Of a stretch of DNA of 64,000 bases, positions 28,601 to 37,600 are shown piece by piece; the stretch's first letter is position 1, and every line of letters starts with the position of its first letter. Location of the stretch: positions 480,001-544,000 of the forward strand of contig JAKFCY010000002.1 in assembly GCA_036676395.1 (NCBI GenBank). Reading direction: 5' to 3'. The DNA is from Bdellovibrio sp. (GTDB lineage: Bacteria > Bdellovibrionota > Bdellovibrionia > Bdellovibrionales > Bdellovibrionaceae). Position numbers: made by a program.

Positions 28601-31600
28601 ATCAAAGCTAATAAAAAGTAGTTTTGAACTGTCGATTTTGAAAACTAAGAATCTTTTTCTTATTCGACATGGTGAAACGGATTGGAATCGTGCTAAACGG
28701 TTCCAAGGCCGCACCGATATCCCCTTAAATGATGAGGGGCGTGTACAAGCTCTTGGCTTGTGTTCACGTATGATAGAACTAAAAATTGATTTGGTTGTAT
28801 CTAGTTCTTTGTCGCGGGCTTATGAAACCGCTTTAATCGCGATCCAAGATGTTAAACTTCCGATCCAAAAAGATGATCGTCTGCAAGAAACCAATATTGG
28901 TGAAGCCGAAGGTCTTACGCATGAAGAAATTTCTGAAAAATTTGGCATTGGCCATATCGAACGTTGGCGTTCGTATGAAGAACGTGATTTGGATTTTAGA
29001 TACCCTAGCGGGGAGTCGAAAAGACAGATGATGGTCCGTGTGCGTGAGGCTGTTTTGGACATTGCGCAAAACAATTCACACCAAAATATAGCGGTGTTTG
29101 CTCATGGAATGGTTATGCGCGCTTTAACCTTCGCTTTTCACCAAGGTGTTGCATGGGATTTGTCGCAATTTCACAATGGCTGTATTCACCATTTTGTGTG
29201 GGACGACAAAAGGCCAGAACACATGAAATACATTGGTAAAGTAAATTAATCGTTTAAAATATCAGCAGGAGAATCTATGCCTGCGTACTTTAAAAAAGTC
29301 TTTCTTAATTCAACCGGATCATTTTTACCAGGACCTGCCGTCAATAATGACGAAATGGATTCTTACATCGGTTCAATCAATACCCAGTCTAACCGAATCA
29401 AGCGCCGTATCTTAGCTGAAAATGGAATTAAATCACGTCACTACGGCATCGATAAAGAAGGCCGTACTATGTTTTCTTCTGCTGATATGGCAATCAAAGC
29501 GATCGAACATACTTTAGAAAATACCGGCGTAAAAATGGATGACGTTCAATTTTTAAGTACTGGCACCGTTGGTGCTGATATGGCCGCACCGGGTTTTGCG
29601 AATCTTGTGCAAGGGCAGTTGCGTGCAGCTCCAATGCAAACGATGAGTTTTCAAGGGATTTGTGCTTCGGGCGTAGCCGCTATGAAAGCTGCAGCTTCAG
29701 TTGTTGAGCTTGGTGAATTTGATAGATCAATGGCGGTAGCGACAGAGTTTCCGTCACGTTTATTTAAAGCATCTCGTTTTCAACAAGTTGAAGAAAACTT
29801 AGATTTTGATTCTCACTTTTTACGTTGGATGTTGTCTGATGGATCAGGTGCAGTGCTCATGGAAAATAAGCCGCGTGAGACGGGTATTTCATTAAAGCTA
29901 GATTGGATTCATTTAAAATCTTTCAGTGGTGATTACCCAACCTGTATGCAAATCGGTGCTCCATGGGGCAGTGGCAATAATAAAAGTTATTTAGATTATT
30001 CGTCATTAGCTGAAGCTGAAAAAGCTGGTTCATTTTTACTTCGCCAGGATATTCGCTTATTACCAAATTTATTTGATGTGGGTATCAGTGAATTTATTGA
30101 TTTAGTTTTAAAAAATGAAATTCAACCAAATGAAGTGGATCATTTCTTATGTCATTACTCTTCAGAGAGATTTTCTGGTGTTGTAAATACTTTGATGGAT
30201 AAAGCGGGTCTTCGCATTCCGCCAGAAAAATGGTTTAGCAACTTAACCAGTAAAGGCAATACAGGAGCTGCTTCAATTTTTATTATGCTTGATGAATTTA
30301 TGAAGACTAAAAAGCCTAAAATTGGTGAAAAGATTCTTTGTTTTATTCCTGAGTCTGGCCGCTTTACTGTTTCATTTATGTTGTTTGAAGTTATGGAAGA
30401 CGGAAAGTCTAAAAAAATTGAAAGACAAAAGCCAGAACGCAAATTAGTGGAAAACTTATTGTTAGAGCTAGGCAGTGTTTGGCACAGCTACCGCTCTAGT
30501 GTATTTCGCACAGAATTTGCGAATAAGATTTTTAATAATAATTTTTCTGTCGAAGATTACCAACAGTGGATGGAAAACTGGATTCCGCAGGTGCGCGAAG
30601 GTAGTATTTGGATGCGCACAGCGATTAAGAATTTATCGAATAAGTTTGAAGGCATTCAAGAATTAATTGAAGAGCATGCCGGCGAAGAGCAATTCGATTT
30701 TAAAGTATTATATGCCGATTACCAAAATTCAGGCGGAAAAAAAGATATTGACGATTTAAAGCGTAACCCAGGTGGCGAGGCTTTAAATAAATATATGTAC
30801 GAGCGCGCTAATGGCGTAAACCCGCTAGGGTTATTAGGTGGTATCTTTATCATTGAAGGAACAGGCCAAAAGATTATTCCGACGATGTTACCGTTCTTGA
30901 AAAAGAGCTTAAATTTGCAAATGAATGTCTTTAAGTTCTTAGAGTATCACGGTGAAAATGACGTGAAACATTTAGAACGTTGGGCAAATGCGGTTGAATT
31001 GGCTTTAACACTAGAGCCAGAAGCTTATCATGACATCTTAGCTACCGCTAAAGAAGTAGCTAGGCTTTACCACGCACAATGGGAGCAAGTACTATGATAG
31101 AAACGAATGACATGTTTGCGAATATGCAGCATGACCCGGATGATCCAAGTCCGTGGCAGGCCATGTATTTAGATCAAAGCACGCCACTTCGTCCGTCTTC
31201 AAAAACAATGTGGCTGATCAATTCGAGTTCGAATTCGCGCCAGTTTGTTCTGCCATTCGCAAGATTTATTGCGAAAATTATGATTATTACTTTTCAGATT
31301 ATTAAAGCGTTATCGCCGATTGATTGGCGTGCTTCACGTTTGTTGCATCAATTAATTTATTGGGGCTTAAAATATTTTGTTAAAAAAGAAGCGAACTATC
31401 TTATTTTACGACATTTTCATGCTGGCTCTGAGCTTTTAGGATTTATCGCAGGCAATGTGCCTGGTGCAAATATTCCGATGAATCCTTTAAAGCCTAAAAA
31501 TTTAGAAGCCCTTAAAGATAATTTATTTTTAACCCATGATCTGAATTTATATAATTTTGTGATTAATTTAAATCGCGAACTTAGAGAGAAAAATTTAAAA

Positions 31601-34600: not shown

Positions 34601-37600
34601 TCAGTTGTAAAAAAAAGGACATTGCTGTGAATGATGTTTTAATTTTTTTAGCCATTTTAGCTTTCGGAACTTTTAAATACGGTACTCTGATGGGTATTCC
34701 GTACTACATTTTTTGGAAAGTAAAACCAGCATGGTTAAATAATTTTAAAAAAATTCAAGTGCAAGAGCGGGCAAAACCGCAAGTCGCCTTAGAGATGAAA
34801 TATTCAAGCTATACACTAGTTATTCAGGCGATCTTTTTTTTCGGCATTTATAAATTGAACCAGCTTGGCTTTGTGCAGATCGTGGCTGAGCAGCCGTTAT
34901 GGAAAGATTTAGTCGCGCTGGGCATTTACGTCTTGATCTATGATCCATTCTTCTATGTGCTTCATCACATCATGCATAAGAATAAGTGGTTATATCGCAA
35001 TATTCACGTTGTGCATCACCGCTCACTTAATCCAACACCTTGGGCGACTTATTCGTTTCATCCCATTGAAGCAGCTGCAAACTTGTTATATTTTATTCCG
35101 TTTTTCTTTTTAACGAGTGTCAGTGTGCCAATGCTTTTGTTTATTTTGATCGTCACTGACTCGGCAAATTTAGCCGGCCATTTGGGATATGAAGTTTTCT
35201 CAGAGAAAGTGCAAAACAGCTGGTGGGGACGTTGGATCACGACGCCGACTCATCATAATATTCATCATCAGGTATCTAATTCGAATTTTGGCTTGTATTT
35301 CAATGGCTGGGATCTTTGGTTCAAGACCTTAAATGCAAAAGATAAGCGTAAAACTTAGTTAATATAAGTGATTAGGGTTTGGAAGCCCAACGTTGCTTTG
35401 GCCATCACTGTGTCTTGCTCTGCGGCAAGCTGCTTCACTAAGTAAACTACAGTAAATGCGCCAACGTAAAATAAGAATAGTCTTTTTCTAAATTCAATCA
35501 TGGAGCGAAGATACCGCATTTTTGCCTATCGGAGAGAAAAATCTGAGGCTTGGTGAAAAGAATAAAAGGTTGTCAAAAATCTAGACAGGGCAGACAATAC
35601 GTCTATGTCATCAGTCGTCGAAATCAAGAATATATCAAAGAGTTATAAATTAGGGGAAACCCATGTGGACGCCATCAAGGATTTGTCTTTAGTTGTGACT
35701 AAAGGGGAGTTTACGGCGCTTATCGGGGCATCGGGATCGGGCAAAACTACGCTTTTAAATTTAATTGGGTGTTTAGACAGTGTCGATCGCGGTGAGATTT
35801 TAATTGATGGCATGAACGTGAAGCGGCTTAACGAAAACCAAAAAAGCCAGCTGCGTAATGAAAAAATTGGTTTTATTTTTCAATCGTTTAATTTAATCCC
35901 TGTGTTAAATATTTATGAAAATGTTGAATTGCCATTAACCGTGCGTAAAGACATTCAAGCTGCAGAACGTAAAGCAAAAGTTGAAGCGGCTTTAAAAGAT
36001 GTAGGCCTTTTAGAATTTGCGCATCATCGTCCAGACCAACTATCAGGTGGACAACGTCAGCGCGTGGCCATAGCCAGAGCCTTGGTGACATCACCGGCCC
36101 TGATCTTAGCGGATGAGCCAACGGCAAACTTAGATTCAAAAACTGCCAATTTAATTATCGATTTAATGTTAGAATTAAATAAAACAAAACATGTGACTTT
36201 TTTCTTTTGCACCCATGATGAAAAATTAATGAGCCGTGTTCAAAAAATTGTAAAAATTAAAGATGGTCAGATCGAAGCATGATTTGGAAATTTGCTTACA
36301 GAAATTTATTGCGCAATAAACGCCGATCATTATCGACCGGCGTAGCTATTTGCGTAGGCTTTGTAGGATTAAACTTACTAGGTGCTTATATTTACCGCGC
36401 TAAGATGGCCTTAGATACAACATCAATTTATTCGGCACAAAAAGGTCATGTCAGTATTTATAAAAAAGATTCTATTGAACAGTATCAAATTAAACCTAAA
36501 AAATATATTTTTAGCACCGAAGAGCAAAAGAAAATTGATCAGGTCTTAACAGAATTCACTTCTGAAGTTGAATATGTCGGAAAACAAATTTCTGTTCCGG
36601 GATTACTTTCAAATGGAACTAAATCTCATCCCGTAGTTATTTATGGTTTTGATCCTGTAGCCTTTAAAAAATCTTTAACTCAGCCAGCGCTATTAGAATG
36701 GGCTAAAGATTGGGTACTGCCTTCACAGCTTGAAGATGCCGACTTATTTTTAAAAAATCCTGAGACACTTTCGATCACGCCAAAAATTGCCGAGCTCTTA
36801 TCTTTTAAATATCCGTTAAAGAGCAATGAACCCGTGCAAATTGCAGCGCGCACTTTAGAAGGGGATTTAAACGCGATCAATGCAGATCTTGGTGCGGAAC
36901 ACACAACGGGCATGCAATTTCTTGAAGATACTATTGTATTGATTCCAATAGCTAAGGTTCAGGAGTTGTTGGCCACGGATGCGGTGGAAACAATTTCAGT
37001 TTATTTAAAACACGATGTTTCGGTGGATCGATTTATAAGCGAATTGAAAAGTAAGACAACGGCATTAGGCTTCGATACTGATATTTATAGATTTGATGAC
37101 CCTATCATTAATGCCATTCATTCGGGATCGATGGGTTTTTTATACGTTATGGGCGGATTTTTTCTATTTTTAATCTGCACGGCGGTGAGCCTTACGATTA
37201 TTAATTCTCTGACGATGGGGATTATTGAACGTACACGCGAAATTGGAACTTTGCGGGCCGTAGGATTTAAAAGTTTAGATGTCGTACAATTGTTTGTGCG
37301 CGAAAGTGTTTTGCTATCAGTGATCAGCATGTTTTTTGGAGTTTTGATTTCGTTTTTAGTTTCAAGTGCGATTAATGCTGCAAATATTCGGTTTTTTCCG
37401 CCTGGCGCCAGCACCATGATTCAATTTGTCTTAAAGTGGAATTTATATATTGCCGGGTTTGTTTTTATTTTGCTTTTTGTTATTGCCACAGTTTCATCAT
37501 TTTTTGTGATTAAGAGTAAATTGCGCACTAAATTAATTGCCTTACTTAATGACACATCAACTTTCGATGATGATAGCGAAGAAGAGGAATCACCATGAAA

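Follow-up and report, generated by a model that had tools for sequence, protein, structure and literature searches.

The gene run and its first product

The window, the 64,000-nucleotide stretch of DNA analyzed here, comes from a soil or groundwater relative of Bdellovibrio and contains a run of five ORFs, all on the plus strand (Table 1), with the coordinates given in an earlier note on this DNA. The first ORF, with AGGAG located 6 nt upstream of its ATG, encodes a genuine two-domain enzyme, as that note had claimed: Pfam detects ACP_syn_III_C (5.7e-10) and Haem_oxygenas_2 (1.7e-7; 31.7 bits vs a cut-off of 28.9), and PDB matches and the structural model agree with a ketosynthase (KS) followed by a heme-oxygenase-like dimetal oxidase (HDO). 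PF14518 is present in 113 of the 120 best homologs, and our count from the table of matches equals the one previously given. The adjacent DUF6999 gene has an alternative ATG at 31094 (297 aa) that overlaps the KS-HDO stop codon as ATGA; farther downstream, the real start of the second FA_hydroxylase gene is probably located 3' of the listed GTG.

Table 1. Features of the KS-HDO/DUF6999 locus (positions in the window)
Feature	Position	Strand	Evidence or remark
Histidine phosphatase (His_Phos_1)	28638..29249	+	Pfam; 27 nt upstream of KS-HDO
KS-HDO fusion protein, 606 aa	29277..31097	+	ORF call, Pfam, NCBIfam, PDB matches
Ketosynthase domain, residues 1-375, StlD/DarB kind	29277..30401	+	PDB StlD match; triad C129-H293-N328
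HDO domain, residues 385-606	30429..31094	+	PF14518, model, Foldseek
DUF6999 protein, 302 aa	31079..31987	+	PF22523 at 2.1e-119
FA_hydroxylase-family membrane enzyme 1, 236 aa	31991..32701	+	Pfam 6.8e-21; His boxes HRLFH, HVDHH, HSLHH
PLD-family protein, 604 aa	32796..34610	+	PLDc_2 6.1e-39 (two stretches); two intact HKD motifs
FA_hydroxylase-family membrane enzyme 2, 263 aa	34567..35358	+	Pfam 1.6e-25; His boxes HHIMH, HVVHH, HHNIHH
MacB/FtsX-type ABC exporter set	35605..39635	+	Pfam/NCBIfam
Exporter ATPase	35605-36282	+	
FtsX permease, first	36279-37598	+	
LolA_like	37595-38317	+	
FtsX permease, second	38322-39635	+	
416-aa ORF, no family	39628..40878	+	Pfam; neighbourhoods; travels with exporter set

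The two domains of the fusion protein

Among PDB sequences, KS residues 7-371 match StlD (5gk0) with an E value of 1.2e-74; the runner-up is FabH (2ebd, 8.7e-11) and OleA entries follow at 1e-4 to 7e-3, which puts StlD about 60 orders of magnitude ahead of OleA or FabH. To assess conservation, 77 fused homologs from named genomes were aligned and 2 truncated rows dropped; in all 75 remaining full-length sequences, C129, H293 and N328 are invariant, and so is the FLRWMLSDG stretch that the domain has in common with StlD. The previous assignment of the KS to the vicinity of StlD/DarB, with an intact triad, thus holds. In the phylogenetic tree, which includes just 3 DarA-linked KS sequences, on long branches, the fused KS cluster with these DarA-associated enzymes apart from FabH (support 100/100), either nested among them or as their sister group. 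The NCBIfam scores are lower than the respective cut-offs, namely, 367.8 bits vs 450 for the StlD/DarB model NF005293 and 312.1 vs 550 for the DarB model; a DarA-linked Streptomyces KS likewise falls under the StlD/DarB cut-off (381.9). Given these scores, the description of the pathway as dialkylresorcinol-type, for which the StlD-nearest KS speaks, is a prediction rather than a family assignment.

The C-terminal 222 residues, modeled with a 28-row alignment (pLDDT 94.4), match 3dde (TM 0.82), CADD (8va9, 0.82/0.85) and UndA (6p5q, 0.76; 4wx0, 0.77) in Foldseek, each with a probability of 1.00, and the HDO profile retrieves 3dde from PDB at 6.3e-10. The predicted structure thus confirms the HO-like fold of the CADD/UndA kind that had been proposed, along with a conserved His/Asp/Glu set, despite sequence identities of 10-12% to CADD and 10-20% across UndA and other HDO fold matches. 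The pattern H-x3-E...E...H-x3-D-x2-H is conserved in the fused homologs: H467, E471, D474, E527, H558 and H565 are invariant (75/75), whereas D562, also listed as invariant in the earlier note, is found in 73 of the 75 sequences and replaced by N in the other 2. These residues are putative metal ligands, assigned from conservation and HMM alignment to 3dde and not by superposing the domain residue by residue on CADD or UndA. No Lys position of the domain is invariant in the fused-homolog alignment.

A widespread two-gene cassette

Examination of 80 named loci around DUF6999 from several phyla identifies a two-gene cassette as the conserved unit. KS and HDO are encoded directly upstream of DUF6999 in 77 loci, in a single ORF in 76 of these, and the contigs of the other 3 end at this point; Pseudoalteromonas has the unfused version KS, HDO, DUF6999. 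The loci span Bdellovibrionota, Bacillota, Gamma- and Betaproteobacteria, Bacteroidota and a Chlorobi-like MAG. Within its own phylum the module occurs sporadically, in 5 of the 201 sampled genomes, and it is present in Paenibacillus, Cellvibrio, Chitinibacter and Flagellimonas, among others, so it is not a predator trait. In one Bdellovibrionota genome (G111), KS-HDO is followed by a GH3-family gene, without DUF6999. A Nostoc plasmid encodes a KS (42% identical) beside a partial DUF6999 match. We found no paper on the KS-HDO/DUF6999 cassette, which appears to be a widespread yet unstudied gene pair.

Conservation within the cassette is highest for DUF6999, with 54-60% identity between phyla, vs 41-56% for the KS and 30-56% for the HDO. 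Its model is all-helical (pLDDT 85.1). Neither Foldseek (best E 0.53) nor VIA (best Z 4.7) gave a match to a known fold, PDB sequences yielded no hit at E<=10, and no cofactor-binding fold was recognized in structure and sequence searches. Across 36 sequences, one of which is only 26% identical, the invariant polar residues are R54, R111, H112, N126, H153, D154, D205, N231, D236, N258, H260, R273, H277 and E282. The His/Asp/Glu subset of this inventory, 4 His and 4 acidic residues, resembles a metal site and suggests that the protein might bind metal.

Whether DUF6999 is the DarA/StlC aromatase family had been left open in the earlier note, and the answer is negative. The proteins at the DarA position in two classical ACP/KS clusters share 36% identity, and neither resembles DUF6999 in sequence or profile comparisons (hhalign probability 0.24%); hence the core is not an ordinary DarAB pair. 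Searches of the genome (99.3% complete) with two DarA-like queries returned no DarA-like gene, and tblastn with these and two ACP queries detected no ACP or DarA-like genes in the window or in the 1.29 Mb covered by the 80 loci.

Accessory and flanking genes

The five genes are not a single conserved operon as originally envisaged: the KS-HDO/DUF6999 pairing holds, and the other members vary. In 45 of the 80 loci (2 of the 29 in Bacillales), an FA_hydroxylase homolog lies no more than 5 kb from DUF6999, and a second copy occurs in Bdellovibrionota loci only, so the two hydroxylases are not fixed members. Elsewhere, accessory genes include FA_desaturase or P450; all three families are O2-dependent lipid enzymes. 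The PLD gene is a lineage-specific insertion between the hydroxylase genes, with a putative role in the pathway: it is present in 4 of the 80 loci, those of the four closest relatives (L009-L012; 96/82/75/59% identity). Its product is nearest to cardiolipin synthases and starts with a signal peptide followed by about 230 aa of no assigned function.

The Lol-like exporter is likewise a lineage-specific addition. It adjoins the cassette in 6 of the 80 loci (downstream in L009-L012, upstream in L015 and L019); it is a possible lipid exporter, loosely linked to the cassette. The lolCE model scores 31.5 and 54.1 bits vs a cut-off of 362; therefore, it is not a canonical LolCE system. The His_Phos_1 gene is kept upstream in L009-L013 only and is probably an unrelated neighbor.

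Proposed pathway and alternatives

Judging from the sequence relationships described above, the cassette could encode a variant of the dialkylresorcinol/cyclohexanedione (DAR/CHD) route that lacks DarA and a dedicated ACP, a reading to which we assign a probability of about 0.5. The KS would take two thioesters of the fatty acid pathway, one a 3-oxoacyl and the other a 2-enoyl chain, probably bound to the ACP of primary metabolism, and join them by Michael addition and Claisen condensation, as in StlD/DarB, into a carboxy-dialkylcyclohexanedione. The bartoloside (brt) pathway is described as similarly operating without a dedicated ACP (PMC6836626). The fused HDO would then oxidize this intermediate with O2 at its dimetal site. 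DarB products are reported to be carboxy-CHDs that are decarboxylated along with DarA aromatization (PMC6836626; PMC13748660), and the most economical guess is that the HDO performs an UndA-type oxidative decarboxylation across C4-C5, which would yield a resorcinol by aromatizing the ring in the absence of DarA. DUF6999 might carry out a second obligatory step, e.g. ring hydroxylation to a hydroxyquinol or quinone; the variable membrane diiron enzymes, here the two FA_hydroxylases and elsewhere FA_desaturase or P450, would tailor the product, and in the host lineage the nearby FtsX/LolA-like ABC system may export it. The product, formed without DarA, is likely to be an oxidized lipid of the dialkyl-cyclohexanedione or resorcinol type.

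The roles of the two partners could be swapped, with DUF6999 replacing DarA as aromatase/decarboxylase and the HDO performing another oxidation, such as ring or chain hydroxylation or desaturation. The strong conservation of DUF6999, which is as constant a partner here as DarA is for DarB, and the many reaction types ascribed to HDO enzymes fit this scheme; however, the dissimilarity of DUF6999 to DarA-position proteins, the failure to recognize a cofactor-binding fold and the retention of KS-HDO without DUF6999 in G111 render it rather unlikely. We consider it improbable that no ring is formed at all, i.e. that the KS is a plain head-to-head Claisen or pyrone-making enzyme (as OleA, CorB and MxnB), and the HDO decarboxylates or desaturates its product in an UndA-like manner to a long-chain ketone or olefin that the membrane diiron enzymes modify. 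The large lead of StlD over OleA and FabH, the invariant StlD-specific motifs and the clustering with DarA-linked KS all argue against such a route, although the KS scores under the family cut-offs, UndA and OleA are among the fold and sequence matches, the FA_desaturase/FA_hydroxylase partners suit aliphatic lipid chemistry, and a 2019 review suspects that DarA-less DarB homologs may react differently and may not yield carboxy-CHDs (PMC6836626).

A single five-gene pathway (29277-35358), in which the PLD-like enzyme joins the ring lipid to a phospholipid head group, e.g. by phosphatidyl transfer, seems very improbable. The genes are closely spaced on one strand in an order kept in the four closest relatives, and the PLD protein has both HKD motifs and an affinity to cardiolipin synthases; nevertheless, it carries its signal peptide in place of Cls-type membrane helices, its gene is missing in 76 of the 80 loci, with the hydroxylase genes adjacent in other Bdellovibrionota, it diverges faster (in L012, 59% identity vs 78-91% for the flanking cassette genes), and it is preceded by a 94-nt gap and a terminator-like hairpin at 32661-32675. 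CADD donates an amine from its own Lys. The high rank of CADD in the fold search (TM 0.82-0.85) suggests that the HDO could be non-catalytic or sacrifice itself as CADD does, supplying or holding the KS starter unit, but the lack of an invariant Lys argues against self-sacrifice and, together with the low identity to CADD, makes this explanation extremely improbable.

Comparison with known systems

The DarABC/StlCDE systems of Pseudomonas, Photorhabdus, Chitinophaga and Eikenella (dialkylresorcinol, cyclohexanedione, bacterial stilbene) employ a KS of the class to which the cassette enzyme belongs, StlD being the nearest solved relative of the latter; the Cys-His-Asn triad and FLRWMLSDG are shared, and the substrates are likely fatty acid-derived in both cases. 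Unlike these systems, the cassette loci (the 80 and the window) contain no DarA/StlC aromatase or ACP gene, and the KS scores under the NCBIfam family cut-offs, is fused to an HDO and has an obligatory partner, DUF6999, unrelated to DarA. The cyanobacterial DarA-less DarB homologs are also DarB-like KS that have no aromatase next to them; the review passages on them mention neither an HDO domain nor DUF6999 (PMC6836626). OleA, CorB and MxnB, head-to-head condensing thiolases, resemble the cassette KS in being KAS III-like and joining two acyl chains, OleA being a far weaker match than StlD (1e-4 to 7e-3 vs 1e-74). UndA (Pseudomonas 1-undecene synthase), CADD, SznF, BesC and 3DDE, the last without an assigned function, have the HO-like helical fold and conserved His/carboxylate set in common with the cassette HDO, which differs from them in its fusion to a KS and is only 10-20% identical; the oxidative decarboxylation of a fatty acid by UndA is the type of reaction proposed here for the cassette HDO.

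Organization of the locus

Ten same-strand ORFs occupy positions 28638-40878; the cassette genes, a further ORF of the window and the loci of other genomes that are discussed below are listed in the table. The GC content varies little over this stretch (0.33-0.45). Among named relatives, Bdellovibrio sp. qaytius is the nearest, with 89% identity in DUF6999 and 93% in the ketosynthase domain. A scan for promoters and terminators yielded numbers at or near chance: promoter-like sites numbered 36 (44 expected) and terminator-like sites 20 (12.9 expected). The DNA is present in 21 metagenome runs from soil and groundwater; RNA runs were sought among these and none was found, all 21 being DNA.

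Coordinates and properties of the genes and loci considered (window positions unless another locus or genome is named)
Feature	Location	Description
KS-HDO fusion	29277-31097 (+)	606 aa; AGGAG 6 nt 5' of the start
DUF6999 ORF	31079-31987	ATG inside the ORF, at 31094, shares the sequence ATGA with the KS-HDO stop
FA_hydroxylase-family genes (two)	31991-32701, 34567-35358	Pfam match and all three His boxes
PLD-family gene	32796-34610	Between the two hydroxylase genes
FtsX/LolA-like exporter genes	35605-39635	After a 246-nt gap: ABC ATPase, two FtsX permeases, LolA_like protein; followed by the 416-aa ORF
416-aa ORF	39628-40878 (+)	No family (weak DUF6646, 0.024)
207-aa ORF	25121-25744 (+)	5' of the Tex gene; no Pfam family
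L091, locus in genome G111	G111:C11:36000-50000, 5299-8692 (-)	633-aa KS-HDO fusion, then overlapping GH3-family (adenylate-forming) gene
L092, locus in genome G090	G090:C2:1-14000, 3048-8984	FA_desaturase-cytochrome P450-DUF6999, opposite-strand FA_hydroxylase, KS-HDO, then 516-aa ORF without family
L090, Nostoc flagelliforme plasmid pNFSY08	6001-8700	KS match (42% identity) adjoining a DUF6999 match, residues 18-166 only; no listed CDS
DarA-position protein, Burkholderia pseudomallei plasmid	L008:5042-5998	Order hypothetical (318 aa)-KS-ACP
DarA-position protein, Streptomyces plasmid	L089:7160-8125	Order ACP-KS-hypothetical (321 aa)-FAD monooxygenase-SCP2-FabF-P450

The ketosynthase and oxidase domains

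The earlier note had described the N-terminal part of the fusion as a ketosynthase (KS) of the StlD/DarB kind with an intact triad, and both the nearness to StlD/DarB and the triad hold: residues 7-371 match Photorhabdus StlD with an E-value of 1.2e-74, the next PDB sequence being a FabH (8.7e-11), and the Cys-His-Asn triad of KAS III-type enzymes (C129/H293/N328) is invariant in 75 of the 75 full-length fused homologues (77 were aligned and two truncated rows dropped). The best NCBIfam match is the StlD/DarB model NF005293 with 367.8 bits, under its cut-off of 450; the score on the DarB model NF053539 is 312.1 bits, under the cut-off of 550. On NF005293, the KS of the Burkholderia pseudomallei plasmid and a Prevotella KS exceed the cut-off (599.8 and 492.1, respectively), and a DarA-linked Streptomyces KS likewise stays under it (381.9 bits). 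In the phylogenetic tree, the fused KS group with the DarA-linked ones in a single clade (100/100 support) that excludes the genome's own FabH genes; the tree does not order the two groups within the clade, the DarA-linked sequences being few and on long branches. By these sequence comparisons, the KS domain is closer to StlD/DarB than to the chain-initiating FabH.

The C-terminal 222 residues, modelled with 28 homologues (pLDDT 94.4), match 3DDE (TM 0.82), CADD (0.82/0.85) and UndA (0.76-0.77), all with a probability of 1.00, so that the CADD/UndA fold claimed previously was recovered; the predicted structure of this domain is a heme-oxygenase-like helical fold, and the domain is named here a heme-oxygenase-like dimetal oxidase (HDO). 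The domain scores 31.7 bits on PF14518 (cut-off 28.9), its profile matches 3DDE at 6.3e-10 in the PDB, and the earlier count of 113 PF14518 carriers among the 120 best homologues was reproduced. As an orthologue of the unfused HDO, 3DDE was rejected, the match being only 1e-6. HDO family members carry three His and three or more carboxylates at the metal site. Of the six residues previously reported as invariant, H467, D474, E527, H558 and H565 are so in 75 of 75 fused homologues, as is E471, and D562 is found in 73 of 75. All of these apart from D474 align with His, Glu or Asp residues of 3dde, and the seven residues are putative metal ligands judging from conservation and this alignment.

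A conserved unit with a patchy distribution

A pattern scan with one genome per species retrieved 556 relatives, the best 80 loci of which were analysed. KS and HDO lie directly upstream of DUF6999 on the same strand in 77 of the 80 loci, the contigs of the other three ending at this point, and are encoded in a single ORF in 76 of the 77 (the arrangement in L026 is ambiguous); the unfused order KS|HDO|DUF6999 is found on a Pseudoalteromonas plasmid. Among the hosts are Bdellovibrionota, Paenibacillus/Cohnella/Bacillus, Cellvibrio, Chitinibacter/Deefgea/Andreprevotia/Parazoarcus/Rhodoferax, Cyclobacteriaceae, Flagellimonas and a Chlorobi-like MAG. Across phyla, DUF6999 is the best conserved component (54-60% identity), next to 41-56% for KS and 30-56% for HDO. 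Within the phylum of the window, DUF6999 occurs in 5 and the fused HDO in 6 of 201 sampled genomes, with 2 of 7 genomes of the genus, own genome included, encoding DUF6999; because the cassette is thus patchy in the phylum, the link to predation is weak for this Bdellovibrio sp. genome.

Two loci, those in G111 and G090, are notable variants. DUF6999 was not found in G111, the Bdellovibrionota genome that combines a KS-HDO fusion with a GH3-family gene. The KS of L065, a MAG labelled Candidatus Udaeobacter, falls at a very short distance inside the Paenibacillaceae/Bacillaceae group, and the flanking ABC-F and SLH+GH18 genes are similar to those of Paenibacillus loci; this contig may be mis-binned. 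On the Nostoc flagelliforme plasmid the locus is perhaps a decayed copy, though pseudogenes are left out of the gene table for plasmids.

The accessory genes are more variable. The two FA_hydroxylase-family proteins score 75.5 and 90.5 bits (cut-off 31), and the hydroxylase sequence has no match in the PDB. FA_hydroxylase genes lie within 5 kb of DUF6999 in 45 of 80 loci (Bdellovibrionota 19/20, Gamma 15/20, Beta 8/8, Bacillales 2/29, others 1/3), and FA_desaturase genes are found near it in 19 of 80, all within the 28 proteobacterial loci. The LolA-like/ABC set is near DUF6999 in 6 of 80 loci, downstream in four (L009-L012) and upstream in two (L015 and L019), and the 416-aa ORF is kept with the exporter genes in the same six. 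The exporter genes were considered as a LolCDE/LolA lipoprotein-sorting system, and this assignment was rejected: the equivalog cut-offs are missed (LolD 239.6 against 307.75; lolCE 31.5 and 54.1 against 362.45) and only Pfam LolA_like and FtsX domains are found. The PLD-family protein carries a signal peptide, and both of its HKD motifs (HRKMLVID and HSKFMIVD) are intact; it falls under the cardiolipin synthase cut-offs (TIGR04265 148.8 bits against 290; ClsB 106.9 against 281), and is therefore a PLD superfamily member with no assignable Cls identity; against the PDB, it yields generic PLD matches only. The PLD gene, like the exporter genes, is a lineage-specific addition.

DUF6999 is distinct from the DarA aromatase

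The earlier note had left open whether DUF6999 is the DarA/StlC aromatase family. A tblastn search of plasmids with the KS domain led to two classical clusters, on a Burkholderia pseudomallei and a Streptomyces plasmid. The hypothetical proteins in the DarA position of these clusters are taken to stand for the DarA family by gene order (hyp-KS-ACP and ACP-KS-hyp) and because they are 36% identical to each other (E 1e-48). The B. pseudomallei protein is not matched by PF22523 (DUF6999), and hhalign of the DUF6999 alignment against it gives a probability of 0.24%, which answers the question in the negative and rules out DUF6999 as DarA/StlC. The two DarA-position proteins begin with a flavodoxin-like YSQ(T/S)GQ segment; DUF6999 is predicted to be all-helical. 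With both proteins and the two ACPs as queries, the window, the 80 DUF6999 loci (1.29 Mb) and the genome itself (99.3% complete) gave no match. The DarA-position proteins belong to no Pfam or NCBIfam family, even though DarB has an NCBIfam model; the accessions adjoining that of DarB hold only unrelated models.

The DUF6999 family itself is large and isolated. There are 3259 homologues at E<=0.001, and all 120 of those listed are nameless or named 'hypothetical' or 'DUF6999'. The AF2 model built from 25 sequences is confident (pLDDT 85.1, pTM 0.85), and fold searches with it recovered no solved structure, giving a best E of 0.53 (Foldseek against the PDB) and a best Z of 4.7, to GPCR-like helix bundles (VIA-align wide). 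At E<=10, the profile matches nothing in the PDB and Pfam finds only DUF6999 itself in all 25 members; there is no NCBIfam match, the best ESM Atlas features score is 0.82 with unrelated rows, and an exhaustive profile search returned the family alone (422 representatives, many of them fragments). A second HDO was considered and rejected, the hhalign probability against the HDO domain being 0.06%. The polar residues R54, R111, H112, N126, H153, D154, D205, N231, D236, N258, H260, R273, H277 and E282 are invariant in 36 sequences, including a member with 26% identity, and the four His and four acidic residues among them would suit a metal centre. The order H...HD...H...H...E recalls HD-domain diiron oxygenases; such an assignment is not claimed, and no HD domain appeared in any search. 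The one hydrophobic stretch (residues 57-80) contains charged residues, which suggests to us a soluble or peripheral protein. A predicted complex of KS-HDO and DUF6999 scored 0.00 against a mark of 0.32; run without controls, this value is silent on binding either way. In a 424-aa metagenome protein (P0113), DUF6999 (12-286) is joined to a C-terminal SnoaL-like polyketide-cyclase domain (305-411; SnoaL_2 1.2e-13), a single instance that hints at DUF6999 acting on cyclic polyketide-like substrates.

A proposed pathway and its alternatives

According to a review, DarB condenses a 3-oxoacyl with a 2-enoyl thioester to give a carboxy-cyclohexanedione, decarboxylation takes place in the DarA aromatisation, and 'DarA-less' DarB homologues with unknown products exist (PMC6836626). 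The same two-enzyme logic is described for Eikenella in another paper (PMC13748660), and a preprint on listianol presents a pathway with canonical DarA and DarB. In the best reading of the cassette, with a probability of about 0.5, the KS would make the carboxy-cyclohexanedione, which the fused HDO would oxidise with O2, possibly in an oxidative decarboxylation of the UndA type that renders the ring aromatic. A further obligatory step would then fall to DUF6999, and the product would be tailored by the membrane diiron enzymes.

It is possible, if rather unlikely, that the roles of HDO and DUF6999 are swapped. A non-cyclising condensation that leads to ketones or olefins is unlikely; the placement of the KS in one clade with DarA-linked enzymes speaks against it. 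Membership of the PLD gene in the pathway, implied when the earlier note counted it in the operon, is very improbable in spite of its position: it is near DUF6999 in only 4 of 80 loci, those of the closest relatives (L009-L012), and is an insertion, given that the two hydroxylase genes are adjacent, with no PLD gene, in other Bdellovibrionota. That HDO is a CADD-like sacrificial domain is hardly credible. Beyond the preferred order of steps, a more specific scheme, in which DUF6999 as a new-fold metalloenzyme and the KS-fused HDO would start from two ordinary fatty-acid intermediates and, independently of DarA, produce a membrane lipid of the hydroxylated-resorcinol or quinone type that is passed to an envelope exporter in this lineage, strikes us as quite doubtful.

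Dialkylresorcinols and cyclohexanediones serve bacteria as signals, antibiotics, pigment anchors and immunomodulators. The cassette may offer novel HDO chemistry on a ring of lipid origin and probably an unknown lipid, as well as a function and structure for DUF6999, an orphan family without relatives outside itself; if the metalloenzyme reading is true, it would define not only a new family of enzymes but also a class of bacterial redox or signal lipids that is itself new and widely distributed. Because cultivable genera without pathogens, Paenibacillus, Cellvibrio, Chitinibacter and Flagellimonas among them, carry the cassette, and Caulobacter vibrioides likewise has a match to DUF6999, these proposals are directly testable. 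The window contributes the direct DarA test, the phylum-level patchiness and the recognition of the PLD and exporter genes as lineage-specific. A full-text literature search (figures and supplements aside) found no paper on the KS-HDO fusion or DUF6999. To our knowledge, every studied route consists of DarB and the DarA aromatase; here, in contrast, no DarA was found, and the KS is instead fused to an HDO domain and accompanied by an obligatory DUF6999 partner of unknown fold.
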